Positions 10,644 through 32,000 of a DNA stretch of 32,000 bases are shown here, in pieces (position 1 is the first letter of the stretch; each line of letters begins with the position of its first letter). The position numbers and the translations under genes are program-made. The notes below the pieces were generated by a model. The model was not told the origin of the DNA, searched no databases, and saw only the letters and a program-made list of their open reading frames with translations. Source of the DNA: Pyrodictium occultum (lineage in GTDB: Archaea > Thermoproteota > Thermoprotei_A > Sulfolobales > Pyrodictiaceae); NCBI RefSeq assembly GCF_001462395.1, contig NZ_LNTB01000001.1:1440001-1472000 (forward strand), written 5' to 3'.

Positions 10644-12640
10644 CCCCTCCCTCCTCCCGCGGGGGCGGCGGTCACGGGCTCCAGCGTGGTCGCGTTGAAT
10701 GCCTTCACCCGGGGCAGTGAGTAGGGAGAGACGGTGTATATGGCATCATCTATGTAGACGCTCCTAGCGGCGCCAGAGTGGCCGAGCACCCCCAGCAGCT
10801 CCAGCCCTCCACGCCGTGCATCAAGCTTCACCACAGCCACACCGCCGTACACCTTCTCCATGCCGGTGGCCCCCTTCAGGGGCACGGCCACAGCGCCGCT
10901 AACCGGCAGCAGTATGTAGCCATGCCTAGGGTCGAAGGTGAAGGCCCGGTGGCCCAGCCTCGGGTCCAGCACCGGGCTCCACACGTAGCCCCTGCCCCCG
11001 ACGTGGACCCTGCCCAGTACCTCCACGCCTCCACGCTGAACCTTGTAGAGGCTCACCCTCAGCGCGGGTCCATCCCGCCCCACGCCGATGAGGAGCGTTT
11101 CGTTTACCGGGTAGAGGTACTCGTCGAACCCCGGAGACTTGATGAACCCCACCACCCTCGGCCTACGTGGATCGCTCAGGTCCACGGTGAATAGCGGGTC
11201 AATCCTCCGGTACGTTACGAGGTAGAGCCGGGGCCCTAGGAAGAGGGTAGCGTGCACCCTCTCCCCCACCACGATGCTGGTGTTCGCTATCGCCCTCAGG
11301 TTCGTGGAGTTGAACAGGTAGAGGCTCACTCTCGTAACCCACCTTCCCTCCTCGAAGCCCTGCTCCTCGACGACGGCGCGGAGCACGCCACGGTACTCGT
11401 CGAGCATCCACTGCTTCCTCACCACGCCGGGTAGGCGGGCGACAGCCCTGACGGACAGCCTTGGCCCCGGCTCCACCGCCAGCTCGACAAGCAGGCTCCG
11501 GGACCACCGGCTTGGAGACCCCCATAGCCTCCGGAGATCCGCCGCCAGCTCCCCGGGGGTCACGTTGCCCCTGTCTCCCAGGATCCGGTGGAGCTCCTCC
11601 ACCCCCGGAAGCACTACGTAGAGCCGGCCTCCACGCGGCATATACATGGCGGAGGGGTGGGCCCCTATGAGGGTCAGCGTGGAGACACGGCCGGTCCTGA
11701 GGCTGAAGGCAGCCACTATGGTCTCGAGCGGCTCTGGGCCCACGATGAGCGGCGGCTCCGGGACGGGGGTGGGGCCGCTGCCCGCCCCGAGTAGCAGGGG
11801 GCGCACGAGGAAGCCGGTATAGGTTATCAGCAGGAGCGTATCGTTGTAGAGCCTCGCGTCGTAGAAGCTGCCGGTGACAGCCCTAGCCCATAGGGGCTTC
11901 ATCCCAGGCCCTAGCTTGATCACCCAGGTCCTGGAGGGGAGCAGCCATGGGCTCCTAGCCTCCTCGGCCACCACCACCAGCTGGCCGTTCTCCATGAATA
12001 GGCCTCTCACCCACACGCGGTGCACAACCCTGGCGACGGGCTCTACCCTGCCATGGGATATCAGTGCCAGCTCCTCGTCGCCTACAAGCTCCTCCACCTC
12101 CCGGCTAGCGTTGAAAACACTGACAAGCCTGAGAGCCTCCGGCGGGTATACATTGTACACCTCAGCCGCGCTGCCTGCTGCAACGGCTATGTGGGTGCCG
12201 TTAGTCTTGACTATATCGGGCTCGTCCACCCCGGCTACCTGGACGTTAGTGGAGCTATACTCCGGTGCAGCCCCCACCTCCCTCGTGGCCGGGCCCGCGG
12301 GGGACGCCCCACCCAGCGGCATCACCGGGCTCTGAGGCCTCAGCCTAGCAAGCTCCTCCACAACGCTCCACGGCACTCTGTAGCCATAGCCCGTCCATGA
12401 CACGGCTAGACTGGTGTTAGCCCGGCCGCCGGCCGTCGTAGTGGACGGCGGCCCTGCCCCGCTCCCCGCCGCGGCGGTAACAGTGGTGGTCACCGTGGCG
12501 GTCGCTGCCTCCGGCTGGGCCCCGCCCGGCCTCCCGTGGATGGAGCCGAGCATGTAGCCGGCAGCAATACCGAGGAGGAGGACAGCGACCATAATCGTGA
12601 TGCTGCTGTACGAGATCCTGCCCAAAGCGTGGTGCACCAT
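10640..12640 (-). CDS. N-terminally anchored secreted beta-propeller domain protein (Beta_propel/PF09826-like)
   Basis: 666 aa. It has a TM anchor 'ITIMVAVLLLGIAAGYML', a Thr/Ala-rich linker 'ATATVTTTVTAAAG...STTTAGG', and 'NVQVAGVDEPDIVKTNGTHI', which is typical of that family. The start codon is embedded in the TGGTGCACCA palindrome. Confidence 0.7.
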   Translation of the reverse strand: MVHHALGRISYSSITIMVAVLLLGIAAGYMLGSIHGRPGGAQPEAATATVTTTVTAAAGSGAGPPSTTTAGGRANTSLAVSWTGYGYRVPWSVVEELARLRPQSPVMPLGGASPAGPATREVGAAPEYSSTNVQVAGVDEPDIVKTNGTHIAVAAGSAAEVYNVYPPEALRLVSVFNASREVEELVGDEELALISHGRVEPVARVVHRVWVRGLFMENGQLVVVAEEARSPWLLPSRTWVIKLGPGMKPLWARAVTGSFYDARLYNDTLLLITYTGFLVRPLLLGAGSGPTPVPEPPLIVGPEPLETIVAAFSLRTGRVSTLTLIGAHPSAMYMPRGGRLYVVLPGVEELHRILGDRGNVTPGELAADLRRLWGSPSRWSRSLLVELAVEPGPRLSVRAVARLPGVVRKQWMLDEYRGVLRAVVEEQGFEEGRWVTRVSLYLFNSTNLRAIANTSIVVGERVHATLFLGPRLYLVTYRRIDPLFTVDLSDPRRPRVVGFIKSPGFDEYLYPVNETLLIGVGRDGPALRVSLYKVQRGGVEVLGRVHVGGRGYVWSPVLDPRLGHRAFTFDPRHGYILLPVSGAVAVPLKGATGMEKVYGGVAVVKLDARRGGLELLGVLGHSGAARSVYIDDAIYTVSPYSLPRVKAFNATTLEPVTAAPAGGGRG

Positions 12641-13006: not shown

Positions 13007-13032
13007 TGTGTTATTGAACTGTGTTATTGAAC
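13007..13032. repeat. perfect tandem 13-bp direct repeat (TGTGTTATTGAAC x2)
   Basis: Read directly from the sequence. It is an AT-rich island in the divergent spacer between the small membrane ORF and pepA. A GTTCAA inverse match to TTGAAC follows ~20 nt downstream. Confidence 0.9.
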
Positions 13033-13142
13033 CCTACCCCTGCTCTGTGCTGTTCAAAACACTTTGCATGACCCGGCTGCCGGCAGGCGGCGCTCTTATC
13101 ACCCCTCCAGGCATGGTAATCCCTACGCCCCGGTGCCTTGTT

Positions 13143-14612
13143 ATGCGCGGCTCCATAAGGGTGGGCGACGCCGCCGAGGGTGTTGACGCTATAGCGTATG
13201 TCGCTGGCCGCGAGGCCCTGGACTGGCTCCGCGGCGTGGACCCGGCCGCGTCCCGTGTGATAGAGCTGGGCGACTTCAAGGCCGGGCTCGAGGAGACCGC
13301 TCTCATCTACCGCTTGGAGGGCGTCCCCAGGCTTATTCTCTCGGGCGCTGGCGGCGAGGACGAGTGGATCGGCCACGCCGAGCGGCTCCGCGTGGCGGTG
13401 GCGGCGGCGGTAAAGCAGGCCCGGAGGCTCCGCCAGATCCGTAGGCTAGGGATAGTCGTCGAGAAGGGGCTCCTCGAGAAGGCCGCCAGCGAGGGCCGTG
13501 GCGAGAGGTGGGCCGTGGAGCAGGCCCTCATAGCCGCCGACATGGCCAACTACGTCTACAGCCTCCATGGACGCGGCGACCGCCCCCACGTGCTGGACGA
13601 GATCCGGATCGGGCCCGGCGACGAGAAGGCCCTCGAGAGTGCCAGCGCGATCGCCGAGGGCGTGAGGCTGGCCAGAGACCTGGCCAACGCGCCGGCCAAC
13701 ATAATGGGGCCGGACGGCCTCGAGGACGCCGCGAGAGAGCTGGCCAAGAGGCTAGGCCTCGGGATAAGAGTGCTCCACCGCGGCGAGCTGGAGAGCCTCG
13801 GCATGGGCGGGATACTGGCCGTCGGAAGCGGCAGCGACAAGGAGCCCAGGCTCATAGTGCTCGAGTACCACGGCGGCGGCCGCAGGGTAGCAGTAGTGGG
13901 CAAGGCGGTGGCCTTCGACTCCGGCGGCCTCGACCTCAAGCCCTCCCAGTACATGCTGGAGATGAAGTATGATAAGAGCGGCGGCGCGGCAGCCATGGGC
14001 ATCATAGCCGCTGCCGCCAGGCTCCGCCTCCCCGTAGAACTCGTAGCCCTGATCCCCGCCGTGGAGAACATGCCCAGCGGCCGCTCCTACAAGCCCCTAG
14101 ACGTGATAAAGATGTACAATGGCTTGACTGTCGAGGTCGGGAACACTGACGCAGAGGGAAGGCTAATACTAGCAGACGCCCTGGCATACGCGGCGGAGAA
14201 GTACAAGCCCGACGCAATGATAGACCTTGCAACCCTCACCGGGGCCGCCGTGGTGGCCTTAGGAAACCACGCAGCAGCCCTCATGTCCAACAACGAGGAC
14301 CTAGCCTCAGGGATCGAGAAGGCCGCCTGGGCCGCCGGCGAGCCCGCCTGGAGGCTTCCCATGTGGCCGGTCTACGAGAAGCAGCTGGAGAGCAAGGTGG
14401 CGGACACCAATAACATAGGCGGCCGCTGGGCGGGAGCGATAACGGCAGCCAAGTTCCTGGAGAAGTTCGTCGATGGGAGGCCCTGGGCGCACCTAGACAT
14501 AGCGGGCGTGGCCTGGGTGCAGGAGAAGGGACCCTGGAAGCCCTACTACCACCAAGGAGGCGCCACCGGCTGGGGCGTAAGAACAGTTGTAGAGTACCTC
14601 CGGGGCCTCTAA
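13143..14612 (+). CDS. pepA: leucyl aminopeptidase (peptidase M17)
   Basis: It carries 'VGKAVAFDSGGLDLKP', 'MKYDKSGGAA', the M17 signature 'NTDAEGRLILADAL' and 'DLATLTGA'. ATG 13143 ('MRGSIRVGD') has GGTG 7 nt upstream and gives a typical 489-aa length. Confidence 0.85.
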   Translation: MRGSIRVGDAAEGVDAIAYVAGREALDWLRGVDPAASRVIELGDFKAGLEETALIYRLEGVPRLILSGAGGEDEWIGHAERLRVAVAAAVKQARRLRQIRRLGIVVEKGLLEKAASEGRGERWAVEQALIAADMANYVYSLHGRGDRPHVLDEIRIGPGDEKALESASAIAEGVRLARDLANAPANIMGPDGLEDAARELAKRLGLGIRVLHRGELESLGMGGILAVGSGSDKEPRLIVLEYHGGGRRVAVVGKAVAFDSGGLDLKPSQYMLEMKYDKSGGAAAMGIIAAAARLRLPVELVALIPAVENMPSGRSYKPLDVIKMYNGLTVEVGNTDAEGRLILADALAYAAEKYKPDAMIDLATLTGAAVVALGNHAAALMSNNEDLASGIEKAAWAAGEPAWRLPMWPVYEKQLESKVADTNNIGGRWAGAITAAKFLEKFVDGRPWAHLDIAGVAWVQEKGPWKPYYHQGGATGWGVRTVVEYLRGL

Positions 14613-16825: not shown

Positions 16826-18403
16826 TCAGAAGCCCCCACCTCCCCTCCTAGTTGAGCGTCTTGAAGAGAGCAGGGAGCGGGCCCACTGAAGCGCTTCTTC
16901 GGCAGGCTTCGCGCTCTCTGCCCACTCCTTAACGTCCTCGCTGGTGTAGACCCATATCTCTCCACCCTGTGCTTCACCTGACGGCGCCTCGCCCTCGAGT
17001 AGCGCCTCTACCTCGGCACGGGCCTCCCGGAGGATCCTCAGCGCCTCAGGGCTGGGCCTCCATAGCTTCCTCTCCACAGCCTCTGCTAGACGGCGTGTTA
17101 TCTCCTCGAGCGCATACGGGTTAGCCTTCTTCATCCATTCCCTGTTGGTCTTGTCTCCTAGGTACGTGTATGTTATCTGGTCCCACACCCTGTCGGGGAC
17201 AGCGTGTGTCGTCGCATGCCAGCCGTAGAGGTTCTGTATCTTCTTCATTATCTCGTATGCTCCTCTGTACCCGTGCCTCTTCATGCCCTCGATCCATCGT
17301 GGGTTTAGGAGCTTGCCGTAGGTTACACGTAGCAGCTCATCCTTTACCTCACGTATCTTGGGGCGTAAGGGTTCACGGGTATCGACAACCATGTTTAGCG
17401 GCTCACGCCCTCGGACAACCTTGACGAGGGCGTGCAAGCCGCCCTGATGTGAGAAGTAGGAGCAGCAGTTCAGCGGGTCATGCTCATCGCTTATATGGTT
17501 TCTCGCCACTACGTCTATGCGTGAAACCTGTAGGACTAGGGCCTTAGCTGCAGCTGGATGAGACTTGCCCCAAGTCCTCCGCGTATACGGGTGGCTGCTC
17601 CACTGAACCCACACCTTTGCTAGGTCTCTCTCGTCGCGCCATGCGGAGGCGAATATAGCATAGTTGACTCCTGTGCCATAGGCTCCGGGTGGCGCAGCCC
17701 ATACGCGTGCACGGGCAAGTTCTCTAGCATCTTCTTCGCCTACACCCTCCCTTCTCAGCCTTTCAAGGAACTCGAGATAATGCTTGCGTGGATAATTAAG
17801 CTCAAGCGGCTCATCTAGATTAACAACTTTCTCTACAGCCTCATCTATCAAGCTCACATAGTTTGGCAGCGTGTCGCGTACTATACCGCTTATCCTCACG
17901 AAGACGTCTACCCGTGGCCTACCAAGCTCTTTGAGCGGTATGACCTCCACACCCTTCACTCTGCCGCTAGCATCCCATACAGGACGCACGCCTAGCAGGT
18001 AGAGAACCCTGGCAAGCTGCTCTCCGTCAGCCTTGTAGCCGTCAATGCTCCACAATACTTCACCCATGGTTTCGGGGTAGCGGCCTAGCCTCCTCCTAGC
18101 CTCCTCTAGAAGCTTCTTAGCCGTTTCAACGCCTATCCTCCACGCGGCACGTGTGGGAAGAGCCTCTGGGTCTACGGCGTAGAAGTTCCTGCCCGTGGGT
18201 AGCACATTTATCTTGCCGCGGGTTATGGCTCCCGAGGGGCCTGGCGGCACAAAGCCTCCAGAGAGCCCGCTGAGTAGGCCCTCTATCTCGTGCCTACCGC
18301 TCTCCCGGTACAGCCTAGCAATTAGGAGTGCCTTCCTGAAAGCGTTTAAGGCTTGTCTGGTCTCCTCCCCTAAGGGCTTCTGAAGCTGGACTAACTCTGT
18401 CAA
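16826..18403 (-). CDS. cobN: CobN/ChlH-family chelatase large subunit, C-terminal part of a split gene
   Basis: 525 aa. 'GKINVLPTGRNFYAVDP' and downstream blocks are collinear with residues ~780-1191 of the intact paralog at 26974-30549 ('EALPTGRNIYQFDP'). The TTG start overlaps the upstream stop (TTGA), and GGTGA lies 4 nt upstream. Confidence 0.8.
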   Translation of the reverse strand: MTELVQLQKPLGEETRQALNAFRKALLIARLYRESGRHEIEGLLSGLSGGFVPPGPSGAITRGKINVLPTGRNFYAVDPEALPTRAAWRIGVETAKKLLEEARRRLGRYPETMGEVLWSIDGYKADGEQLARVLYLLGVRPVWDASGRVKGVEVIPLKELGRPRVDVFVRISGIVRDTLPNYVSLIDEAVEKVVNLDEPLELNYPRKHYLEFLERLRREGVGEEDARELARARVWAAPPGAYGTGVNYAIFASAWRDERDLAKVWVQWSSHPYTRRTWGKSHPAAAKALVLQVSRIDVVARNHISDEHDPLNCCSYFSHQGGLHALVKVVRGREPLNMVVDTREPLRPKIREVKDELLRVTYGKLLNPRWIEGMKRHGYRGAYEIMKKIQNLYGWHATTHAVPDRVWDQITYTYLGDKTNREWMKKANPYALEEITRRLAEAVERKLWRPSPEALRILREARAEVEALLEGEAPSGEAQGGEIWVYTSEDVKEWAESAKPAEEALQWARSLLSSRRSTRRGGGGF

Positions 18404-20808
18404 ATCTTCACCCCCTCCCCGCGCGCAGCCTCAGCCACAAGGTCTTGGAGAAGATTGAAAGAAAGCATGTCAGGATCTATATCCTTTGACAAGAGTTTCT
18501 CGAGGACCCTAACAGCTATACTGTGGAGGATCTCTCTAGCCTTCCTGTTGCTAACCCCCAGCTTCTTGCAGAACTCGCTGGGCTTCGACACTATCTTGTC
18601 GTAGTCTAGGCCGAGTAGTGTTGCCACTGCCCTCTCTATTGATATCCACTCGCCAGTGTCCCAGGACATTATAGCTGCTACATGCTCTGCAAGCTTTTCA
18701 GGATCTGAAGGCGTTTCACCAAAGACGTGGAGCCCGTTCTCGACGGTACTTCCTCTTGTCTCGTCCAGGAACTCATGAAGCCTCTCAGTGATCTTATCAG
18801 GGCTCCCTTTGCCTACATCGATGCCACGCTCTCGAGCTTTCTCAACAATCTGCTCAAAGATTACTTTTGCACGGGCCTCCTCGCCTAGGCTTTTTGCACG
18901 GCTGTACTCCTCCAGGAGCTCGTCAAGCTCCTCAAGAGCTGTGTCAGCCTTCATGTACGGCGGGTGGGCATGGTCTATTATCACCGCGTAGCCTCTCCTC
19001 TTAGCCATGACACCCTCCATGGGGTTTGTCACATTGTATATGTAGAGGAAGGGTATGTCGTCAACTGTTATCTCTGGCCAGCAGTAGGGCGAAAGCCCGA
19101 CACCCTTGCCTGGGCGGAACTCAAGATACCCATGCGTCCCCCAATGTATCATCACGTCTGCGCGGAAGATCCTGGTCACCCACCGGTAGGCTGCCAGCCA
19201 CTGGTGCGGGGGAGGGATAGTGGGGTTGTGGAGTATCTTGCAGACCCTCCCATCGCATAGGGCGCCGGCGCAGCCAAACTTCGGCTGCGGCATGATAACT
19301 ATGTTGCCGAAACGTATGCCGGGTATTACGAACTTCCCGTTGTACACCGCGCCGGCGAATAGCCTCTTAACCTTGCCGCTTAGGATGTCACGGGGATCAC
19401 CCCACCACTTAAGCATAACCTTCCTAGCCTCCTCTGGAAGCTCCATGAACCACTTCATGTATGTGTCGAGGTCAACCATGTCAAGGTATCCTCCCCGCCT
19501 AACTATTTCCTCGACGGGGGTCCAGCGGAACTCGCTCGTAGCCCTCCTCTCGAGTATCAAGTGGATTAGCTCGTCTCCCGTTTTCGGCAGCTCGCCTTCG
19601 CCAGTGTAGTAGCCTAGGCTGCGGAGACGGTGGAGGAAGCGTACAAGGCTCTCAGGCACATCGAGCCCGAACCCGACTCCTATCGATGCCTCAAGCTGCC
19701 TACATGGGGGATTATTGAGTATTATGGCTATCCGCCTCTCGCTGGGCTTCTTCCTGCGCAGGATCACCCAGCGCTTAACCCTCCTAGCTATGAGCCTGAC
19801 GTGAGGCTCATAGGGTATGTGCTTCCTGTAATCGGAGACCCTAGTCGATGTGCTAATGACGATGGGCTCTACTGCGCCGTCAACCTCGGGCATGATGACT
19901 TCATATACTTGTGTCAGATAGTTGACTCCCTGGGGGTTCTCGAGCCACTCGTGCTCACTCTGATACCACTCGCGGATGGGCTTAAGCACTGGGACCCCGA
20001 GGCGTTGGAGCAGCTCAACGCCTCTAACAATCCTAAACCTCTCGTCAACCGTGCTTCTTGAGTAGCTTCCATGGTCGAGGAGGAAGAAGCTAAGCATATC
20101 TATGAGCACATCTATTCTAGCCCCTTTAGCGCCTAGGAAGAAGCTGCGTATAGTGTCCTCAGCGCTGGGTCCGCCCAGCACGCTATCCCTATAGCCCTGC
20201 GTGAAGACGGGAATGACGCCAAGCCCCTCAGTCTCCAAAGCATCTATGAGCGCTTCAAGGGGTCTTCGGTTCCCGTAGAGCCAGAGGCTACGGTAGTAAA
20301 GTATGCCTATGAGAGGCTTGTCAGCCATATAATAGTCGCGTAGATAGTCGTCGATATCCTCGTAGACGCCTAGCTTTGGGTGCCACACCCCGTGCAGAGG
20401 GATCTCCCTGGGAGGCGGGGGCTCTTCTTCCACGAGACCTGCCAGATACAAGAGATACCGGAGAAGGAGGCCCAGGTTCTCCTCGCCACCGATCCTAAAA
20501 TACTTCATCGCCTGGAGCAGAGCGCCCTCCTCTCCACGGGCTAGATACGCATAGCTCTCCCCCGCGGGTATCACAAACCTGGCACTCGATGATGCTATGG
20601 CCTCCTCCGCCTCTTTTGGAAGCCTATGCGTGTAGAGGAAGATTACCCTGGAGCTTCTGAGATCATCCAGGCCCTTACCCCCCTCAAGCGTGTTTGGGGA
20701 AAAGACTCTGATGAACTGGCCAGCCTCCCCCATCTCAGCTCCAAGTCTGCGCAGCAGCTCTATCACGGGGCTGTCATAGCCTATTACAAGCGTGACTAGC
20801 GAGCCCAT
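18400..20808 (-). CDS. cobN: CobN/ChlH-family chelatase large subunit, N-terminal part of a split gene
   Basis: The conserved block 'HQWLAAYRWVTRIFRADVMIHWGTHGYLEFRPGK' matches '[35 protein letters not shown]' in the paralog. I place the start at ATG 20808 ('MGSLVTLVIGYDS'). The GTG at 20847 lies inside the promoter palindrome. Confidence 0.8.
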   Translation of the reverse strand: MGSLVTLVIGYDSPVIELLRRLGAEMGEAGQFIRVFSPNTLEGGKGLDDLRSSRVIFLYTHRLPKEAEEAIASSSARFVIPAGESYAYLARGEEGALLQAMKYFRIGGEENLGLLLRYLLYLAGLVEEEPPPPREIPLHGVWHPKLGVYEDIDDYLRDYYMADKPLIGILYYRSLWLYGNRRPLEALIDALETEGLGVIPVFTQGYRDSVLGGPSAEDTIRSFFLGAKGARIDVLIDMLSFFLLDHGSYSRSTVDERFRIVRGVELLQRLGVPVLKPIREWYQSEHEWLENPQGVNYLTQVYEVIMPEVDGAVEPIVISTSTRVSDYRKHIPYEPHVRLIARRVKRWVILRRKKPSERRIAIILNNPPCRQLEASIGVGFGLDVPESLVRFLHRLRSLGYYTGEGELPKTGDELIHLILERRATSEFRWTPVEEIVRRGGYLDMVDLDTYMKWFMELPEEARKVMLKWWGDPRDILSGKVKRLFAGAVYNGKFVIPGIRFGNIVIMPQPKFGCAGALCDGRVCKILHNPTIPPPHQWLAAYRWVTRIFRADVMIHWGTHGYLEFRPGKGVGLSPYCWPEITVDDIPFLYIYNVTNPMEGVMAKRRGYAVIIDHAHPPYMKADTALEELDELLEEYSRAKSLGEEARAKVIFEQIVEKARERGIDVGKGSPDKITERLHEFLDETRGSTVENGLHVFGETPSDPEKLAEHVAAIMSWDTGEWISIERAVATLLGLDYDKIVSKPSEFCKKLGVSNRKAREILHSIAVRVLEKLLSKDIDPDMLSFNLLQDLVAEAARGEGVKI

Positions 20809-20844: not shown

Positions 20845-20890
20845 CACCAGAGAATATAAATCTGGTGCACCAGATTTATATTCTCTGGTG
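20845..20890. promoter_or_regulatory. perfect 46-bp palindrome: two mirrored CACCAGA-N9(TATA)-TCTGGTG elements forming a bidirectional promoter/operator
   Basis: CACCAGAGAATATAAATCTGGTG|CACCAGATTTATATTCTCTGGTG. The right arm is the exact reverse complement of the left arm. Each arm is itself a 7-bp inverted repeat flanking TTTATAT/ATATAAA. The TATA boxes lie ~41-52 nt from ATG 20922 (plus) and ATG 20808 (minus). Confidence 0.75.
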
Positions 20891-21320
20891 CACCTACCCC
20901 TCTGATGGAGGGTTCTCAGGTATGAGCCGGACTTGGCTAATCACGGTGGTAGCAGTACTGATTGCTGCAGGCCTTGTAGCCGGCTACGAGGTCCTCAGCC
21001 ACCCCTCCACGGCGTCGAAAACTGTGGCGACAACGGTGGCCAGGACAACTGTTGCTACACCGGCTGCTACGCTTGTAAAGACCGTGGCGACCAGCACCAG
21101 ATTTATATTCTCTGGTGCACCTACCCCTCTGATGGAGGGTTCTCAGGTATGAGCCGGACTTGGCTAATCACGGTGGTAGCAGTACTGATTGCTGCAGGCC
21201 TTGTAGCCGGCTACGAGGTCCTCAGCCACCCCTCCACGGCGTCGAAAACTGTGGCGACAACGGTGGCCAGGACAACTGTTGCTACACCGGCTGCTACGCT
21301 TGTAAAGACCGTGGCGACCA
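20867..21320 (+). repeat. perfect 227-bp tandem duplication (2 copies: 20867-21093 and 21094-21320)
   Basis: A base-by-base comparison of the two copies found no mismatch. Each copy contains one promoter arm, the SD-like GGAGGGT, the ATG and the first ~57 codons (TM anchor plus Thr-rich linker) of the propeller gene. Confidence 0.95.
20922..21152 (+). pseudogene. truncated duplicate 5' gene fragment (76-aa TM anchor plus linker, frameshifted tail) created by the tandem duplication
   Basis: It has the same ATG context as 21149. The 227-nt period is not a multiple of 3, so the frame shifts at the junction and ends at 21152 ('...TVATSTRFIFSGAPTPLMEGSQV'). It could still be expressed as a small anchored peptide. 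Confidence 0.6.
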
Positions 21321-22822
21321 CCAGGACAGTAACAGTACCGGTAACTAGGACTGTTGTTATCGAGGAGGCTAGAAGGCCTAGACTCCTCGCCGACATCCCT
21401 ATCGCGTCGAGAAGCTCGCTCCCACCCTACACCTATGTCCAGGTATCGTCATGGCGTAGCCACGCTCCATACACTTTGATAGTCTTCGCACCATCCTCAG
21501 ACGAGTTCGCAGTGACAGTGACGAGATTTGTAGGAGGTAAGCCCGTTAGCGAGGTACGCGTGTTCAGCGTCGAGGGTGGAAAGGTCGCTGAGCTATGGAG
21601 GTTCAGCGTGGGGAGCGGCTATGTCCGCTCCCTCGCCTGGAGCAGTGACGGCGCAATCCTCTTCATAGGAGAGGACAGCATTGATGGGAGAGTGGTAGCG
21701 GTTAACGCGTCAACGGGCAGGATGCTCTGGAGCTATGCGACCAGTAGAGATCTTGGCAAGGGGGACCCCCGTGAGCCGAGGTGGTACTGGCCGCAAGTAC
21801 ATGCTATAAGGTATAGGGGTGGAAGAGTCTATGTAGCGGCTGCGGCCAAGCCACAAGCCTCCTATGGGAAGAACTCGGTAATATACTGCTTTGACGCTAA
21901 GACGGGCCAGCTGCTCTGGAGGTACCCCCCAGAGGGCTTTATAGACACACTTGTAAGCGATATAGAGTTGAGCCCTGACGGCTCATACCTAGCAGCGGCC
22001 ACCTGGTACTACCGCGGCAAGGCCTGGAAGGGCGGCGACCTCCTCCTACTAGACGCTGCTACAGGGAAGCTGCTTGCCAGGTTCCGGCCCAGCCCACGCC
22101 CACCATTCCGCTGGTGCGGCAGCTGGAACGGATTAGGCTGGCTCGACAATACAACCATAGCTTATGTGACAGACGTCGGCATCATCCATATACTACAGGC
22201 GCCCAATCTCACCGAGAAGGCCGAGATCAACGTGACTAATCCCTTGCCGGTCCTTGTCATCCCCAAGGGAAGCAATACTACTGAGGAGGGCTATGCCTAC
22301 GCGTTCAGTGGCTACAGTAAGGTCCTTAGAACACCTAACGGCCGTACACTACTCCTAGTGAGGACAAGCAACACCTACGGCGTCACAGCACTAGGTAAGA
22401 ACGCTAGGCCCACCCTCAACCACCCTGACGCGAACTCCCTCTTCATATATGAATGGGTGGGAGGAAAACTGGTGCTCGTAGCAAAGTATCCCCTGCATGG
22501 TAGGCCAAACTACGAGCAGTGGGCAACTTACTCCCCTGCTAAGGGCCTCCTAGCAGTCCCAGTGGGCCACGACTATATAAGCAGAACAATGGTGTATACC
22601 GGCGTCTATGTGCTCAACCTCACAGACATCGAAGCGGTTAGGAGCGGGGAGGCATTGACATACATGGTTAAGCCGCCGAGAGACGCCGGCGTGGTCATCG
22701 GGGGAGCCATAAGCCCCGACGGCTCCAAGGTCGTGGCGGTTACTTATCCAATAAACCTGGGTACGCTAGAGAACCCGAGGTTCGTTGGCAGCTACCGCAT
22801 CCTGGTATACAGCCTTGGCTAG
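21149..22822 (+). CDS. N-terminally anchored PQQ-like/WD40-like beta-propeller repeat protein
   Basis: 558 aa. It has the anchor 'WLITVVAVLIAAGLVAGY', the Thr-rich linker 'TVATTVARTTVATPAATLVKTVATTRTVTVPVTRT', and recurring 'G(R/Q/K)(M/L)LW(S/R)Y', 'SSDGAILF', 'LSPDGSYLAAA' and 'ISPDGSKVVAV' blade motifs. GGAGGGT lies 8 nt before the ATG. Confidence 0.75.
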   Translation: MSRTWLITVVAVLIAAGLVAGYEVLSHPSTASKTVATTVARTTVATPAATLVKTVATTRTVTVPVTRTVVIEEARRPRLLADIPIASRSSLPPYTYVQVSSWRSHAPYTLIVFAPSSDEFAVTVTRFVGGKPVSEVRVFSVEGGKVAELWRFSVGSGYVRSLAWSSDGAILFIGEDSIDGRVVAVNASTGRMLWSYATSRDLGKGDPREPRWYWPQVHAIRYRGGRVYVAAAAKPQASYGKNSVIYCFDAKTGQLLWRYPPEGFIDTLVSDIELSPDGSYLAAATWYYRGKAWKGGDLLLLDAATGKLLARFRPSPRPPFRWCGSWNGLGWLDNTTIAYVTDVGIIHILQAPNLTEKAEINVTNPLPVLVIPKGSNTTEEGYAYAFSGYSKVLRTPNGRTLLLVRTSNTYGVTALGKNARPTLNHPDANSLFIYEWVGGKLVLVAKYPLHGRPNYEQWATYSPAKGLLAVPVGHDYISRTMVYTGVYVLNLTDIEAVRSGEALTYMVKPPRDAGVVIGGAISPDGSKVVAVTYPINLGTLENPRFVGSYRILVYSLG

Positions 22823-22824
22823 AG

Positions 22825-24369
22825 TTGGGGGGTAACGCGGTGCCGAGAGGCCCGGAGGGTTTTTCCTCTGGTAAGCTCCTCTGGGTAGCCGCACTCCTAT
22901 CGGCCCTAGCCCTGCTCGGCAGCCTACTTGTACACGCACATGCTAAGGGGGCAGGGGGCAGCCCCCCTGTAAGCCTTGTAGTCGAGCTACCCCCGGGCCA
23001 GAAGCATTACAGCAATACTTCTCTCAAACTACCCCTGCCGGGTAGCTACATCTTCTGGCTCATAGTGGAGTCCAATACGGGTAGACTCGTCAGATACAAA
23101 CTCGACTTGAAGGTGGAGGGTGATGCAAGCCTAGAGAAGCTATCCGGCCCCCTTGAAGGCGTGCTGCAAGGCTACGGGGATAGAGCCATACTATATGGGC
23201 TCATCGAGGCTGGTAGCGGAGGCTTCAAGCTGATTGCCCGGCTCCAAGCCCAGAACCGCACCCGCAGCATAGCCCTCCACGTAGCTAATGTAGAGCTTAA
23301 GGCGGGTTTTAGCAGTGTCTACCTTCCTGTAGACTATCTGGGTGTGAGGGATCCACGGAGAGAGCCTTTCACCCTTGTAGAGTCCTACCCCTCGCCCCTG
23401 CGTAAGCTGCTGGGCGTGGGGGAGAACATTCTCCTCGGCTACATGCGTGTTTGCGTCAGGTCGAGTATGCCGGGCAGCTTCCTGGTCCTCGGCCGCGTAT
23501 ACGACTCTAAAGGCCGCCCTGCTCCAGTGGCGAGTACGGTCATAACTCCGGGAGCGGGCTCCCCCTACATAAGATCCATGGTGGTGGTTAACAGCACTGC
23601 TGGAAGGAATGAATATCATGGCTGTATTGTGGTCCCCCTATGGTCTCTAGCGGAAGTGATACCGCCTGGAAGGTATCGCCTCACGCTGGGACTATATCTG
23701 CCCGGGTCTGCTAGGCCTCTAGCCACCTACAGCCATGACGTGATTGTAAGGCTGCTATATCACGGTGACATAGTTACTGCTCTCGCGGCAACTCTTACAG
23801 GTGCCCTAGTGCTTGTCCCCCTCGCGAGGGTGAAGGATAGCAGGAGGATAGCCTATATGGCTCTTACGGGTGCTTCTCTCACCGCCCTTGTACGGATCAT
23901 CGGGGGTATCCTCCTCCGTCTCTCGCAAGTGCTGGGGCCCTTCGACTGGATAGTCTATGGCCCGGTAACCAGTGGGCTTTACTATGGCCTGCTGGCGGCC
24001 TGTCTTGCCGCGACAGGTGATTGGATGGTCACGGCAGGCGCTGTGCTTGTTGAGTGGCTGCTTTCATCGCTCATACTCAGCCCCGGCAATATAGTGCTCA
24101 GTAGCCTCTGGGTGCTCACGACGCTTTCCGTGGTAGCTCTAGCGGGGTATGCAGCCCTACGTACTCGTCTAGGCCTGCTCCCCATTTACTTCGGCCTCGC
24201 GAAGATCCTCGACAGCTACGTTGACATAAACCTGTACGCATTCATATACAGGCTATACTATGCGCACTGGTATGTTGCAGCATACAGTCTTGGAATGGGG
24301 TTCTACGCCTCCCTTGGCACACTCCTCGCACTGAGAATGGTGCGTGGCCATGCTGGAGGCACAGGTTAG
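22825..24369 (+). CDS. membrane protein: signal/anchor, ~290-aa extracytoplasmic domain and a C-terminal 6-7 TM domain (candidate ECF S-component-like substrate module)
   Basis: 514 aa, starting 2 nt after the propeller gene at TTG 22825, or at GTG 22840 with a GGGGGGT motif upstream. The hydrophobic N-terminus is 'LLWVAALLSALALLGSLLV'. The last ~200 aa form consecutive TM helices. It overlaps the ECF ATPase gene by 26 nt. The S-component assignment is an inference from context and topology only. Confidence 0.6.
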   Translation: MGGNAVPRGPEGFSSGKLLWVAALLSALALLGSLLVHAHAKGAGGSPPVSLVVELPPGQKHYSNTSLKLPLPGSYIFWLIVESNTGRLVRYKLDLKVEGDASLEKLSGPLEGVLQGYGDRAILYGLIEAGSGGFKLIARLQAQNRTRSIALHVANVELKAGFSSVYLPVDYLGVRDPRREPFTLVESYPSPLRKLLGVGENILLGYMRVCVRSSMPGSFLVLGRVYDSKGRPAPVASTVITPGAGSPYIRSMVVVNSTAGRNEYHGCIVVPLWSLAEVIPPGRYRLTLGLYLPGSARPLATYSHDVIVRLLYHGDIVTALAATLTGALVLVPLARVKDSRRIAYMALTGASLTALVRIIGGILLRLSQVLGPFDWIVYGPVTSGLYYGLLAACLAATGDWMVTAGAVLVEWLLSSLILSPGNIVLSSLWVLTTLSVVALAGYAALRTRLGLLPIYFGLAKILDSYVDINLYAFIYRLYYAHWYVAAYSLGMGFYASLGTLLALRMVRGHAGGTG

Positions 24370-26537: not shown

Positions 26538-26924
26538 CATAGTGTGGCCTATGCACTGGAGCATTTCTCCGGAGGGGCAGCATGCTGCAATATAATGGGT
26601 GGAAATGTGCAGCCATACCACACTCCAGCTAAGAGGAAAGCGGACTCGGGAAAGCTAGGGGCAGGCAGGGCCCAGCTCCTCTCAGTAGCGGGGCTCCTTC
26701 TTGAGCCATGAACTTATAGCCGCACCAGGCTGAAAAAGCTTAAGCAATGGCCGTAGCTTATGTGGAGGATTATGGCACACTCTACACGCTATAGGCGTTA
26801 AACCTGTCGAGGCTGCTGAGATAGATTACGACAAGTATTCCATCTGCACTTGTCACTCTTCAGAACAATGCTGCCAGGGCTATGCTCCCCCATAGCACGG
26901 TCCTCGGAATCATGAAGGCCAGGT

Positions 26925-26932
26925 ATTTATAC
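26925..26932 (+). promoter_or_regulatory. TATA box (TATTTATA) of the second cobN
   Basis: It is an AT-rich octamer ~45 nt upstream of GTG 26974. The predicted TSS at ~26955 coincides with the left arm of the inverted repeat. Confidence 0.4.
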
Positions 26933-26954
26933 AGCGGCGACACCATTAATGCGG

Positions 26955-26982
26955 GTGCACCACAGGCTCCCGGGTGGTGCAC
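26955..26982 (+). promoter_or_regulatory. 9-bp inverted repeat GTGCACCAC-N10-GTGGTGCAC covering the cobN start codon
   Basis: Read directly from the sequence. The right arm begins with the GTG start at 26974. The left arm contains the GGTGCACC core shared with the 20.85-kb palindrome. Confidence 0.6.
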
Positions 26983-29900
26983 TTGGGGAGGCTTAAGGTT
27001 CTACTAATATCTACTGTTATCAGCGGTGACTTGAAGAGAGCGATTAAAGATGTTAGCAGCTATGTGGATGTTAAACTGCTGTATTCTCACCAGTTGCCGA
27101 GCTATAGCAGGGAGGATCTCCAGAGACTCGTTGACTGGGCAGACGTAATCCTGATAGATGTCAGGGGCGACCCCGGTGTACTCAGCGAAATAGACTATAA
27201 AGAGAAGGACGTAGTTTACCTGGTTGGCGGCTCGCCAACCCTAATGGCTAGGACGAAGCTTGGAAGATTTAGAATGCCTGCGAAAGCTGCGTCCATAGCA
27301 GTCAGTAGCCCTGAATCTATGGTTGCAAAGATAAAGAGGATGGAAAGGATTATTGAAAGCCTTGGAAGAATTATTCCCTTCGGCGCTCTAAGAGATGCAA
27401 GGGACTATGTGAGGCTGGTAAAGTACTGGGCTAATGGGGGCTATGAGAACTACAAGAACATGTTTCTCCTCCTAGCCCGGAGAGCTGGAGCCAGAGTAGA
27501 AGTTAGAGAGCCCATCGAGTTCCAGGAGTATGGGCTATACCATCCGGTTCACGGCTTCAACTACAATCCTATAATCGATCCAAGTAAGCCGACAGTAGGC
27601 ATACTCTTCTATGGCGGAATGCACTTCGGGCAATGCGCCAAAACGCTTGAAGAGCTTGTAAAACGGCTCGAAGAGATGAATATAAATGTTATACCCGCCT
27701 ATACAGACGGTATACTCGCGCTAAAACCTGTTGAAAAATTCTTCACTGGTGTCGATGCGATAATAAGCCTTCTCTGGTTCAGACTGAACGGCGGCCCCTA
27801 TGGTGGAGACCCAAGGCCCACTGTCGAGCTATTGAAGAGGCTTAAGGCTAAGCTATTCACCCCCGTAATGATGTATAACCAAAAGATAGAGGACTGGAGG
27901 AAAAGCGAGAGAGGGTTAAACGCACTCACAACGGTAACTGCTGTGACCCTCCCTGAGATGGACGGCGGCGTCGAGCCTATACCCCTGGGCGGGGTTAAGG
28001 GTGACGAAGTTGTCCCTATCGATGACAGAGTGGATAAGGTTGCTAGAAGGGTTGCTAGGTGGCTAGAACTCCGGAGGAAGCCCAACCATGAGAAGAGAAT
28101 AGCGATAATAATATACAATTACCCGCCGGGCGAGGAGAATCTAGGCAACGCAGCTTACCTTGACACCTTCAAGAGCGTAGAGAGAATACTAGAGGAGCTT
28201 AGAAGGGAGGGCTACCAGGTCCCAGAAGTTAAAGACCTCAAGAAAATGTTTATTGAGAAGAAGCTCTTCAACCCAACAATTTATCCTCCCGAGAAGATTG
28301 ACTGCCCGAGAATGAGCGTCAAAGAGTATCTGAAGTACTTCAACGAGCTACCGGAGGATGTCAGAAGAGAGGTGGTAAGATACTGGGGCGAGCCACCTGG
28401 CGAAATAATGGTAGATGACAAGGGTATATTAATACCCGGGGTTGTGCTTGGGAACGTGTTCATAGGCGTCCAGCCATCAAGACCGCCACTAGCCAGGGAA
28501 GAGGACGTCTACCATGCAATCCATGACCCGACTAGGCCCCCCCACCACCAGTACCTAGCCTTCTACTTCTGGCTTCAAAGAGTGTTCAAGGCGGATGCCG
28601 TCATCCATGTAGGAACTCATGGTACAGCCGAGTTCATGAAGGGGAAGGAGGTTGGCCTCTCCTCTAGGTGTTTCCCAGACATACTGATAGGTGACATGCC
28701 TAGCTTGTACATATATCATGTCGTCAACACGTCTGAGGCCACGCTAGCCAAGAGGAGACTCTATGCGACACTTATAAGTTACAACTCGCCTCCCTATACA
28801 ACCGCAGATCTCTACGAGGACTATGCAAGGCTAGAGGGATATCTCGACGAGTACCGTGAGGCATTGAGCAGCGGAGACAGAGCTAGGGCAGAGATCGCAA
28901 AGAGGAAGGCCCTTGAGCTAGCGAGGAAGCTTCACCTAGGCGAAGACCTTGAGGAGGTTGAGGCGAAGCTATATGAGTATAAGCGCTCAATAATACCTAA
29001 GGGCCTACACGTTCTCGGCCAGAAATACAGCCTAGAAGAACTCGAAGACTTCATAGTGCTTCTCGCAAGGTATGACAGAGGAGAGATAAAGTCGCTCAAC
29101 AGACTAATATGTGAGGACAAGGGGTGGAGCTACGAAGAGGTTTTGAAGGATCCAAGGAGGCTTAGAGAGGTGGACAGGGAGGCTCGGCAAATAGTCCAGA
29201 AGTTCCTTAAAGGTGAGAAAGTCCCAGCAAGGTATGAGAAGACACTGAGATACAGCCTCGAGATCGCCAAGAAATATGCAGATAATTCTCTCGAGATAAA
29301 GAACCTGCTAGAGGGCCTAAAAGGTAATTACATCGAGCCATCGCCTGGCGGAGATGTGATAAGGAATCCTGAGGCTTTGCCGACCGGGAGAAACATCTAC
29401 CAATTCGACCCGCTAAAAGTGCCGACGGAGGCTGCAACAGAGAGGGGCAGATACATTGCAAGAGAGACTCTGAGAAAGTACTTTGAGAAGCATGGAAGAT
29501 ATCCCGAGAGCGTTGGGGTAGTGCTATGGGGCTTTGAGACGGCTAAGACCTATGGCGAGACCGTTGCACAGATATTTGAGTATCTGGGGGTTGAGGTTAT
29601 CCACAAATCGCCCTGGGAGAAGGAGCTCAGAGTCATACCCCTCAGCGAGCTTGGCCACCCACGTATAGATGTCGTGGTCACAATATGCGGGTTCTTCAGG
29701 GAAATGTTTCCAAACGTGATGGCTTTGATAGATAGGGCCGTGAAGCTTGTCGCGGAGCTCGATGAACCCGAGGAGCTCAACTTTGTCAAGAAGCATGTAA
29801 AGGAGCTTAGAGGCTTTGGAAGTCTCGCAAAGGTAAGAATCTTCGGGCCGAGAGCAACAGAGTATGGCACTAGGATGCTCCAGCTAGTCGAAGACAGCGC

Positions 29901-30549
29901 CTGGAAAGATGAGGCAGACTTAGCTGAGGCCTACATGGAATCAATGAGCTACGCGTATGGTGAAGGCATATACTCTCAAAAGGCGAGGCAACTATTCGAA
30001 GACCTGCTAAAGAGGGTCGACATGGTTACACAAGTCAGAGACTCACAAGACTATGAGATTACGGATCTAGACCACTACTACGAGTTCTTCGGCGGCTTAG
30101 CGAAGTCCGTTGAGCAGCTAAGAGGGAAGAAGCCAGAGATGCTGATAGCCGACACAACCGGGGAGATGGTGAAGGTCGAAGACGTTAGAGAGTCGATAAC
30201 AAGGGGGACAATAACGAGAACTTTAAACCCGAAGTGGATAGAAGCTATGCTGAAACACGGGTTCCACGGAGCCCAGAAGATAGCTGATAGAGTAGAGTAT
30301 CTCCTTGGCCTAGCTGCGACTACCGGGGCGGTCGAGAACTGGGTCTGGGACAAGGTTGCTGAGCGCTTTGTGCTCGATGAAAACCTCTTCGAGAGGATAA
30401 AGAGCAGCAACCCATATGCAGCAAAGAAGATCCTAGAGAGGCTTCTTGAGGCAAGCGAAAGAGGTTACTGGAAGGCGGACAGGAAGGTGCTTAAAAAGAT
30501 AAAAGAGAGGTATATGGAGCTTGACGCGATGCTTGAGGAGGAAGCTTAG
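26974..30549 (+). CDS. cobN: full-length CobN/ChlH-family chelatase large subunit (second, lower-GC paralog)
   Basis: 1191 aa. It carries 'HHQYLAFYFWLQRVFKADAVIHVGTHGTAEFMKGKEVGLS' and 'ALPTGRNIYQFDP' and is collinear with the split pair. The start could be GTG 26974, GTG 26977 or TTG 26983. Confidence 0.9.
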   Translation: MVHLGRLKVLLISTVISGDLKRAIKDVSSYVDVKLLYSHQLPSYSREDLQRLVDWADVILIDVRGDPGVLSEIDYKEKDVVYLVGGSPTLMARTKLGRFRMPAKAASIAVSSPESMVAKIKRMERIIESLGRIIPFGALRDARDYVRLVKYWANGGYENYKNMFLLLARRAGARVEVREPIEFQEYGLYHPVHGFNYNPIIDPSKPTVGILFYGGMHFGQCAKTLEELVKRLEEMNINVIPAYTDGILALKPVEKFFTGVDAIISLLWFRLNGGPYGGDPRPTVELLKRLKAKLFTPVMMYNQKIEDWRKSERGLNALTTVTAVTLPEMDGGVEPIPLGGVKGDEVVPIDDRVDKVARRVARWLELRRKPNHEKRIAIIIYNYPPGEENLGNAAYLDTFKSVERILEELRREGYQVPEVKDLKKMFIEKKLFNPTIYPPEKIDCPRMSVKEYLKYFNELPEDVRREVVRYWGEPPGEIMVDDKGILIPGVVLGNVFIGVQPSRPPLAREEDVYHAIHDPTRPPHHQYLAFYFWLQRVFKADAVIHVGTHGTAEFMKGKEVGLSSRCFPDILIGDMPSLYIYHVVNTSEATLAKRRLYATLISYNSPPYTTADLYEDYARLEGYLDEYREALSSGDRARAEIAKRKALELARKLHLGEDLEEVEAKLYEYKRSIIPKGLHVLGQKYSLEELEDFIVLLARYDRGEIKSLNRLICEDKGWSYEEVLKDPRRLREVDREARQIVQKFLKGEKVPARYEKTLRYSLEIAKKYADNSLEIKNLLEGLKGNYIEPSPGGDVIRNPEALPTGRNIYQFDPLKVPTEAATERGRYIARETLRKYFEKHGRYPESVGVVLWGFETAKTYGETVAQIFEYLGVEVIHKSPWEKELRVIPLSELGHPRIDVVVTICGFFREMFPNVMALIDRAVKLVAELDEPEELNFVKKHVKELRGFGSLAKVRIFGPRATEYGTRMLQLVEDSAWKDEADLAEAYMESMSYAYGEGIYSQKARQLFEDLLKRVDMVTQVRDSQDYEITDLDHYYEFFGGLAKSVEQLRGKKPEMLIADTTGEMVKVEDVRESITRGTITRTLNPKWIEAMLKHGFHGAQKIADRVEYLLGLAATTGAVENWVWDKVAERFVLDENLFERIKSSNPYAAKKILERLLEASERGYWKADRKVLKKIKERYMELDAMLEEEA

Positions 30550-30691: not shown

Positions 30692-31465
30692 CTAGGGCTT
30701 CAGCAGCTCCGAGCCCGCCCGGGCCAGCTCGCTCAGGGTGCGGCGGCTCTCGGCCTGGAGCCTGGAGCTGGAGAGGAGGCGGCGGCTCAGCCTGGAGGCG
30801 AGCCTGAGGACCTCGCGCAGCATCTCCACCTCCGGGCCCTCGTAGCCCAGCTCCCCGGCTCGCCGCAGCAGCTTGGCCGCCAGCTCCAGCTCGTTGAAGG
30901 CTAGCATCCTCAGCCGGGCAAGGTCCTGCCGGGCCAGCCTCGGCTTGGCCGCCAGCCGGCGCAGCTCCTCGAGCACGCCCTCGGGGTCTATGCTGGCTAT
31001 CTGTATCCGGAGCAGCTCCGTCTCCGGGTCGAGCTCCTCGTCCTCCTCCCCCGCGGGCTCGGCGGCTTCGACGCCCCGGTCGTAGGCCTCCAGCGCCTCC
31101 ACCACCGCGTCCAGGTCTAGGAACCTCCACCAGTGCTGGTTGCTGCTCCGGTAGCTCGTCTCGATGACCCCGTAGCCCCGCTCCAGGGCGCGGAGGAGCA
31201 TTGAGGGGTTATAGTCCATCCCCCACGCCTTGAGCCTGGCCACGACCTCGCGGTGGCTGAAGTCGCCCAGGCGGACCCCACGGCGCCCCCGGGAGGCGAG
31301 CGCAGCGTCCACAGCGGCGCGGAGCACGGCGTAGCCTCTCTCACCGTACTCCGCGAGAAACTCCAGCACCCTCTCCCTCACACCGGGCGCCGCGGGGTCC
31401 AACGGCAGACACCCCTCCTTCTCCCCGGAGCCCCCGGGGACCTTGGTATAGCTCCGGGGTAACAT
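30692..31465 (-). CDS. hypothetical protein (very high GC; helical, possibly winged-helix-like N-terminal half, coiled-coil C-terminal half)
   Basis: 257-aa ORF with an ATG start and a plausible composition. The overlapping same-region ORFs (30672-31130, 31117-31344) are R/G/P-rich frame artefacts. No motif was recognised. Confidence 0.5.
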   Translation of the reverse strand: MLPRSYTKVPGGSGEKEGCLPLDPAAPGVRERVLEFLAEYGERGYAVLRAAVDAALASRGRRGVRLGDFSHREVVARLKAWGMDYNPSMLLRALERGYGVIETSYRSSNQHWWRFLDLDAVVEALEAYDRGVEAAEPAGEEDEELDPETELLRIQIASIDPEGVLEELRRLAAKPRLARQDLARLRMLAFNELELAAKLLRRAGELGYEGPEVEMLREVLRLASRLSRRLLSSSRLQAESRRTLSELARAGSELLKP

Positions 31466-31587
31466 CTAGAAGCGGGGTACAGTCCTGGAGCCCCGCCTGG
31501 CCGAAGCCCCGGCGTATTATCAGGAGCTACCCCCGGGTAGCCCCGCCGGTGGAGGCCTGGCGGCGCCGGGAGGGGGGACCCGGGCGT

Positions 31588-32000
31588 CTAGGAGGCTGGG
31601 CTCTCCCCGTGGCGGCTCCTCGCTGCCTGGTAGAGCCTCCTCCCGGCCTCTAGGGCCCAGCTCCCGGCCTCCAGCCGGCCTAGCAGCCCCGGGTCAACTG
31701 CCTCGAGCCCGCCGTGGGCGGCGGCGAGCGCGGCCGCCATAGCCGCGGCGGCGTCGGCGGAGCCGGGGGCTACGGCCGCAGCGGTCCTGGCCGCCTCGAG
31801 CGGGTTGCCCGGGCTCTCCATGTAGGCGTAGAGGGCTGCAGCGAAGGGGTGGGGGTCGCCGCCCGGCACCGGGGCTAGGAGCCTCGCCGCTCTCCCCAGG
31901 GGCTCCCCTGCCAGGTCCTCGAGCCTCGCCATCAGCTCTCTGAGCACCGGGTCCCCTGCCTCGTCGGCGAGCACGCCGGCCAGCCGGCGGGGGCTTAGCC
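31588..32000 (-). CDS. ADP-ribosylglycohydrolase-like protein, C-terminal part (gene continues past the window end)
   Basis: The frame is open to nt 32000. The C-terminal 'PGSADAAAAMAAALAAAHGGLEAVDPGLL' resembles the ARH-family 'GGDTDT.AAI.GA..GA.yG...IP' region but with degenerate acidic residues. Confidence 0.4.
   Translation of the reverse strand, partial: LSPRRLAGVLADEAGDPVLRELMARLEDLAGEPLGRAARLLAPVPGGDPHPFAAALYAYMESPGNPLEAARTAAAVAPGSADAAAAMAAALAAAHGGLEAVDPGLLGRLEAGSWALEAGRRLYQAARSRHGESPAS

Follow-up and report, generated by a model that had tools for sequence, protein, structure and literature searches.

A perfect 227-bp tandem repeat at a putative palindromic divergent promoter of Pyrodictium occultum PL19: probably an error of assembly finishing, or else a very young mutation private to this culture

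In the draft genome of Pyrodictium occultum PL19 (LNTB01), the promoter and the 5' end of a beta-propeller gene are written twice, head to tail, and the question raised by this locus is whether the second copy is present in the cell or only in the record. The sequence analysed here, referred to as the window, is a stretch of 32,000 nucleotides taken from that draft. Between 20867 and 21320, TRF reports a period of 227 with 2.0 copies, 100% matches and a score of 908, and both a repeat search and a direct string comparison find 20867-21093 and 21094-21320 to be 100% equal, in agreement with an earlier sequence-only reading of this DNA, which had described a perfect 227-bp tandem duplication. 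The repeat cannot be extended by 1 base on either side, where T at 20866 stands against A at 21093 and G at 21094 against C at 21321. An exact 227-bp repeat is far beyond chance in sequence; its presence in the DNA of the organism is a separate question. The repeat and the genes around it comprise the following features.

20867..21093, plus strand: repeat copy 1, with the right palindrome arm and its TATA, a GGAGG SD-like motif (20908) and ATG 20922
21094..21320, plus strand: repeat copy 2, identical to copy 1, whose ATG 21149 opens the intact gene
21093..21094, no strand: novel junction, reading ...GTGGCGACCA then GCACCAGATT..., the sole sequence foreign to a one-copy genome
21319..21324, plus strand: CACCAG spanning the distal edge of the repeat, offset by 3 nt from the register set by its copies at the unit starts
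20922..21152, plus strand: 76-aa ORF made by the duplication, with a TM anchor, a Thr/Val-rich linker and a 19-aa out-of-frame tail
21149..22822, plus strand: membrane-anchored PQQ-like beta-propeller, 557 aa (WP_083494572.1), PF13360, 100% identity to the P. occultum protein
18400..20808, minus strand: N-terminal part of a split CobN chelatase (WP_168371340.1), PF02514, E = 1e-168, divergent from the propeller operon

Also contained in copy 1 are the TM helix and the greater part of the Thr-rich linker; this copy is truncated because the period of 227 is not a multiple of 3. The resulting 76-aa ORF, held in RefSeq as WP_168371341.1, ends in a TGA (21150-21152) that overlaps the ATG (21149) of the 557-aa gene as ATGA. 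This ORF is without a Pfam match, and among 15 billion proteins the junction-crossing form has no other member, being unique to the P. occultum record. All parts of the anatomy described in the sequence-only reading were seen, that is, two copies of promoter, RBS and 5' coding sequence, the frameshifted 76-aa ORF, the ATGA overlap and three operator arms. The repeat has evidently confused automated gene calling. In the original GenBank annotation (KSW12578.1) the propeller was cut to 420 aa, with its start at residue 138; RefSeq subsequently annotated the protein at 557 aa and introduced the 76-aa ORF across the junction.

The propeller gene heads an operon that continues with a 514-aa polytopic membrane protein, a double ABC ATPase and a CbiQ-like protein. 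On the divergent side, which also encodes a ChlI/D-like AAA+VWA protein, CobN is present on the minus strand as two ORFs, an N-terminal part (18400-20808, 802 aa, Pfam model positions 2-662) and a C-terminal part (16826-18403, 525 aa, Pfam model positions 676-1089), which overlap by 4 nt in P. occultum. Because the same split is present in P. delaneyi (L001 1-1508 and 1513-3903), the split appears to be a conserved property of the gene rather than the result of a frameshift error. A full-length CobN paralogue of 1191 aa lies at 26974-30549, and the approximately 430 nt between the CbiQ-like gene and this third cobN gene (26540-26970) hold no ORF of at least 120 aa and no Rfam match at the gathering threshold; the window as a whole holds no Rfam RNA family and no tRNAs. 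Elsewhere in the window, a perfect tandem repeat of 13 nt x2 (TGTGTTATTGAAC, 13007-13032), intergenic and just upstream of an M17 aminopeptidase gene (13008-14612), could be a direct-repeat regulatory site, and the G+C content reaches 73% at the right end (31001-32000), as opposed to about 56% in the adjoining sequence.

The left boundary of the repeat falls in the intergenic region between the cobN gene and the propeller operon, which is organised around the following elements.

20845..20890, no strand: perfect spacer-less 46-bp palindrome, putative divergent promoter/operator of cobN (minus) and the propeller operon (plus)
20864..20871, no strand: central GGTGCACC, candidate operator core, conserved in P. 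delaneyi
20887..20894, no strand: second GGTGCACC, just downstream of the plus-strand TATA and repeated at 21114-21121 in copy 2
21095..21117, plus strand: third copy of the palindrome arm, with no left partner, so that copy 2 has half a palindrome

The palindrome, which is the only long perfect one in the 32-kb window, is built from arms one and two, each of 23 nt and consisting of CACCAGA, an AT-rich TATA-like 9-mer and TCTGGTG. The arm motif CACCAGA-N9-TCTGGTG occurs 3 times (20845, 20868 and 21095) against 0.07 expected. The TATA-like TTTATATT at 20875-20882 lies about 40 nt before ATG 20922, and its mirror image 45-52 nt before the cobN ATG at 20808. Judged by archaeal promoter architecture, the palindrome would be the shared divergent promoter of a chelatase and ECF-type transporter cluster, and the assignment of TATA and BRE within it has the same footing. 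A dif or protelomerase-type site was also considered for the palindrome and was dropped, as the element bears TATA boxes, lies between divergent genes and has its core kept in place in P. delaneyi.

The palindromic 8-mer GGTGCACC is found 5 times in the window (20864-20871, 20887-20894, 21114-21121, 12631-12638 and 26954-26961), as opposed to 0.43 times expected. It is located near the starts of two further genes, just upstream of the third cobN gene, where it lies just downstream of TATTTATA, and at the start codon of a second propeller gene (PF09826). Alongside the site at 26954-26961, GGTGCACT is seen at 26975. The syntenic locus of P. delaneyi (9.65 kb) has a single GGTGCACC (L001 3922-3929), in the same intergenic region, and in L010 GTGCAC abuts the TATA. 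On this pattern of sites, GGTGCACC may be the operator of a metal-chelatase and ECF-transporter regulon. CACCAG had been described in the sequence-only reading as a half-site-like hexamer, but the conserved operator-like element is GGTGCACC, which recurs in the window and is kept in P. delaneyi. At the junction, the position equivalent to the central GGTGCACC reads CCAGCACC, and the central site is thereby lost upstream of copy 2. The statement that the locus has three operator arms thus holds as a count of arms; it overstates what is left to promoter 2, which is without the central GGTGCACC.

How the two copies came to be joined can be narrowed down from the junction, which is covered by the 31-mer CCGTGGCGACCAGCACCAGATTTATATTCTC and which shows, in register, no microhomology (0 nt). 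From the CACCAG hexamers at 20868, 21095 and 21319, the sequence-only reading had suggested slippage or recombination by way of the palindrome arms. The copy at 21319 is, however, out of register, the spacing from 21095 to 21319 being 224 nt and not 227, and slippage on the 6-nt CACCAG would yield a period of 224; simple slippage is therefore ruled out as the cause. Fold-back or snap-back chimeras at the palindrome would, reasoning from the sequence, give inverted joins, whereas the junction is direct, and PCR template-switch chimeras need homology, of which the junction has none. Because slippage, fold-back and template-switch chimeras are excluded, the junction is either truly in the DNA or a computational concatenation. 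In JGI metagenome contigs, 0 matches were obtained for a pattern that takes in the novel junction as well as the normal end of the unit, neither form being carried there.

The history of the source assembly bears directly on the second of these. LNTB01 was made from MiSeq data alone (22.5 million reads, mean 276 nt), which were assembled with SPAdes 3.1.0 into 14 contigs and then brought to 2 by read-mapping extension of contig ends and Geneious 'superassembly' (PMC4767911). This history implies about 12 hand-made joins, and the unit of 227 nt is shorter than the mean read of 276 nt. False same-locus ('homotype') duplications about one read long have been reported at contig boundaries, and secondary structure is a recognised cause of assembly gaps. 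The leading explanation, to which we give roughly an even chance, is that the second copy was introduced in the manual finishing of the PL19 draft, as a false duplication at a contig boundary. In this scenario, a contig end near the promoter palindrome would have been lengthened by read mapping over a distance shorter than one read, the adjacent contig would already have contained that stretch, and the two would have been abutted and not merged, leaving 227 bases in the record twice. The single copy in relatives, the finishing procedure, the size of the repeat against the read length and the blunt junction are observed, and the contig boundary at the repeat site and the join made without overlap trimming are inferred. 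The true genome would then have one palindrome, one promoter and one 5' end, like its closest relatives, and the cell would have no 'second promoter', no 'third operator arm' and no 76-aa ORF.

Several properties of the repeat favour such a finishing error. The copies are 100% identical, number exactly 2.0 and stand head to tail, their junction is blunt, and the unit is shorter than one read, matching the size class reported at contig boundaries, in a draft whose extended contig ends were joined by hand about a dozen times. Secondary structure, predicted for the palindrome, is among the known causes of assembly gaps, De Bruijn contigs do end at the palindrome (see below), and the unit start at 20867 coincides exactly with the position expected for the start of a k=25 contig. 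On the other hand, De Bruijn assemblers collapse repeats and do not expand them, and the palindrome, at 46 bp, is shorter than k=127 (the assumed last SPAdes k; the paper gives none) and should not break the graph. An overlap assembler such as Geneious would normally merge a perfect 227-nt overlap, and no technical cause was found for a contig end at 21093, where no word of at least 8 nt ending at that position recurs in the window.

Copy number in relatives provides a further line of evidence. In the Logan assemblies (k=31), four other read sets hold the locus at 99.3-99.96% identity. The contigs L002 (DRR667393), L007 (DRR667394) and L003 (ERR15087784) start at 20861 (TCTGGT followed by GCACCAG), carry the left context of copy 1, pass through one unit and then run unbroken into 21321 and onwards, and L004 and L005, coming from the cobN side, end at 20874. 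All of the five Logan contigs that reach the palindrome stop or start 7 nt past its centre, and this break was reproduced in a simulation of the k=31 graph, in which the two-copy graph branches also at 21094 and 21321, whereas the one-copy graph branches at the palindrome only. Because their contigs are unbroken at 21094 and 21321, where a two-copy graph must branch, DRR667393, DRR667394 and ERR15087784 have one copy. The single-copy count rests on these three, SRR5453782, the read set nearest to the window, being uninformative for 20875-21783. The locus is likewise single-copy in P. delaneyi (60% protein identity) and in a metagenomic orthologue (52%). The comparison with relatives that had been proposed in the sequence-only reading thus finds one copy throughout, in the three near-identical read sets as well as in both more distant loci, and two copies are not characteristic of the species P. 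occultum.

Over the approximately 25 kb compared, the repeat is the only structural difference; all others are SNPs or indels of 1-2 nt. In the three cleaner read sets these amount to roughly 1 per 1,500-3,000 nt, and the ERR15087784 metagenome contig has more of them. That a duplication should be missing from three independent near-identical read sets and yet be the sole structural difference argues for the finishing error, although these read sets deviate from the window at 0.04-0.7% of sites and may not be strain PL19, which has private SNPs relative to the others. Wider searches were also made. The 557-aa and 76-aa products had no exact match in the contig index. Logan contigs identical to the window were sought by the signature of a 577-aa one-copy product (from the palindrome break) or a 509-aa two-copy product (from 21293), with no match, products cut by a contig end being unindexed there; and a profile search of genome contigs, built on eight Pyrodictiaceae orthologues, returned an unrelated bacterial MAG only, with P. 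occultum and P. delaneyi not among the matches.

Smaller differences were also seen among the read sets. Single-base indels at 11257, 14620 and 22827 separate read sets that are otherwise 99.9% identical. In DRR667394, one additional C at 11257 breaks up the 666-aa PF09826 propeller gene, giving parts of 475 and 205 aa, and a G at 22827 is absent in DRR667393 and DRR667394, which accompanies a call of 509 aa, and not 514 aa, for the membrane protein. SNPs among the read sets cluster at the right end of the window (31696, 31699, 31891, 31939 and 31955).

The main rival is a genuine duplication of very recent date, confined to the PL19 culture that was sequenced and begun at the tip of a hairpin, which we consider a serious possibility but hold at somewhat below even odds. 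As single-stranded DNA, the palindrome is predicted to form a hairpin of 21 bp and a 4-nt loop at 20866-20869 (dG -21.4 kcal/mol, z = -10.6), and the left edge of the repeat, 20866/20867, falls within that loop; the chance that either repeat boundary would land there is about 2.5e-4. Palindromes are established fragile sites, at which SbcCD makes double-strand breaks (as summarised in a review and the references therein), and in the crenarchaeon S. acidocaldarius the spontaneous 'large events' regularly include tandem duplications. In such an event, the palindrome would extrude as a hairpin or cruciform or would stall a replication fork, the 4-nt loop would be nicked or broken, as by nucleases of the Mre11-Rad50 or SbcCD type, and the end would be rejoined to the sister strand 227 nt downstream. 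Hairpin-opening nucleases act at the loop of a palindrome.

The position of the boundary in the loop of the only long perfect palindrome in 32 kb speaks in favour of a real event, and it also counts against the finishing error, in that a biological break at the palindrome tip would leave such a boundary too. A real event is further favoured by the fact that short-read De Bruijn output with two copies suggests that junction k-mers were in the reads, by the private SNPs of PL19, which make a private structural variant plausible, by the polymorphism of the locus among very close relatives with the one-copy state ancestral, and by the out-of-register CACCAG at the distal end. Against it stand the absence of the duplication from the three read sets of 99.3-99.96% identity, from P. 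delaneyi and from the metagenomic orthologue, the fact that it is known solely from an assembly with about 12 manual joins, and a unit shorter than one read. Crenarchaeota are thought to rely on homology- or microhomology-based joining, and the junction has none of the in-register microhomology that template switching or MMEJ would predict. In addition, a perfect 227-bp direct repeat should soon be lost by recombination.

In the event of a real duplication, transcription from promoter 1, which has the full palindrome, would cover the 76-aa ORF as a decoy and read through into copy 2, where the ATGA overlap would permit termination-reinitiation at the true start. Promoter 2 would retain its BRE, TATA, SD-like motif and downstream GGTGCACC, and would have lost the central GGTGCACC. 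Expression of the intact gene would thus continue, possibly with weaker control, and because the gene stays intact the event would be near neutral.

Between a real duplication and an error lies an intermediate case, in which the junction was present in a subpopulation of the culture only and the assembler or finisher wrote two copies over a one-copy majority. This we regard as improbable. The 22.5 million reads of 276 nt amount to about 3,800x over the 1.6-Mb genome, and at such depth the k-mers of a minority junction could survive graph cleaning and the loop would be traversed once; SPAdes of that era traversed once a simple loop that survived in the graph. However, spontaneous duplications at a single locus are normally carried by far below 1% of cells, and low-coverage connecting edges are usually removed.

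The sequence-only reading had also raised a reversible expansion, and no evidence was found for a reversible or a functional one. In the form of a selected or reversible regulatory design, in which tandem promoters and a uORF would tune the propeller/ECF operon or make it phase-varying, this is the least probable of the explanations, and we give it very little weight. The formal anatomy (two sets of BRE, TATA, SD and ATG, the ATGA overlap and the half operator) is what speaks for such a design, but close relatives and both of the more distant orthologous loci are single-copy, the zero divergence between the copies gives no indication that they are maintained, the 76-aa product occurs in the P. 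occultum record only and belongs to no family, and a period that is not a multiple of 3 merely truncates copy 1. The other alternatives named in the sequence-only reading, namely a very recent event, a strain-variable one or an assembly artefact, have proved sound, given relatives with one copy and a source draft that was joined by hand from Illumina contigs.

Rough estimates of prior times likelihood for the finishing error and for a real duplication are of the same order, and on the whole evidence the two-copy state is most likely a finishing error and otherwise a brand-new private mutation. Should the finishing error be the true account, the value of the result is curatorial, in that RefSeq lists a 76-aa protein (WP_168371341.1) that does not exist, no promoter or uORF account based on the locus would be true, and the other manual joins in LNTB01 warrant an equal check. 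Should the duplication be real, it would record how a palindrome broke at its tip and was bluntly rejoined in vivo in a Ku-less crenarchaeon, caught before divergence, with the ECF-transporter/propeller operon separated from half its operator; it would amount to one neutral, lineage-private mutation of a known general kind and a tidy example of a palindrome-centred breakpoint in a hyperthermophilic archaeon.

Both accounts have counterparts in known systems. The repeat is like the homotype false duplications in its identical head-to-tail copies of no more than about one read, in the hand-joined extended ends of its assembly and in its absence from independent assemblies; those duplications were, however, described for long-read vertebrate assemblies, whereas the present case comes from Illumina data and SPAdes, which usually collapses repeats. 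With palindrome breakage by SbcCD in E. coli and by Mre11-Rad50/Sae2 in yeast, it shares the placing of one breakpoint within the loop of a perfect, spacer-less palindrome that has a strong potential to form a hairpin. The palindromes studied in the SbcCD and Mre11 systems are mostly at least 100 bp, as opposed to 46 bp here in a 105 C archaeon, and the products in those systems are typically deletions, inverted duplications or recombination, whereas the product here would be a direct tandem duplication with a blunt junction. The pyrE mutation spectra of S. acidocaldarius are alike in that head-to-tail duplication is a recurrent spontaneous class in a crenarchaeal hyperthermophile. The pyrE duplications are reportedly mostly of tens of bases and selected as loss-of-function, whereas the P. 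occultum repeat is 227 bp, leaves the gene intact and is unselected.

The more durable biology of the locus is its single-copy architecture, a perfectly symmetric divergent promoter around GGTGCACC. This is like archaeal divergent promoters in which a palindromic operator lies over BRE and TATA, in that two mirror-image TATA-like boxes are flanked by inverted GGTGCACC. It differs from such divergent operator promoters in that only P. occultum-like genomes show the perfect 46-bp symmetry, the 8-mer core being all that P. delaneyi keeps.
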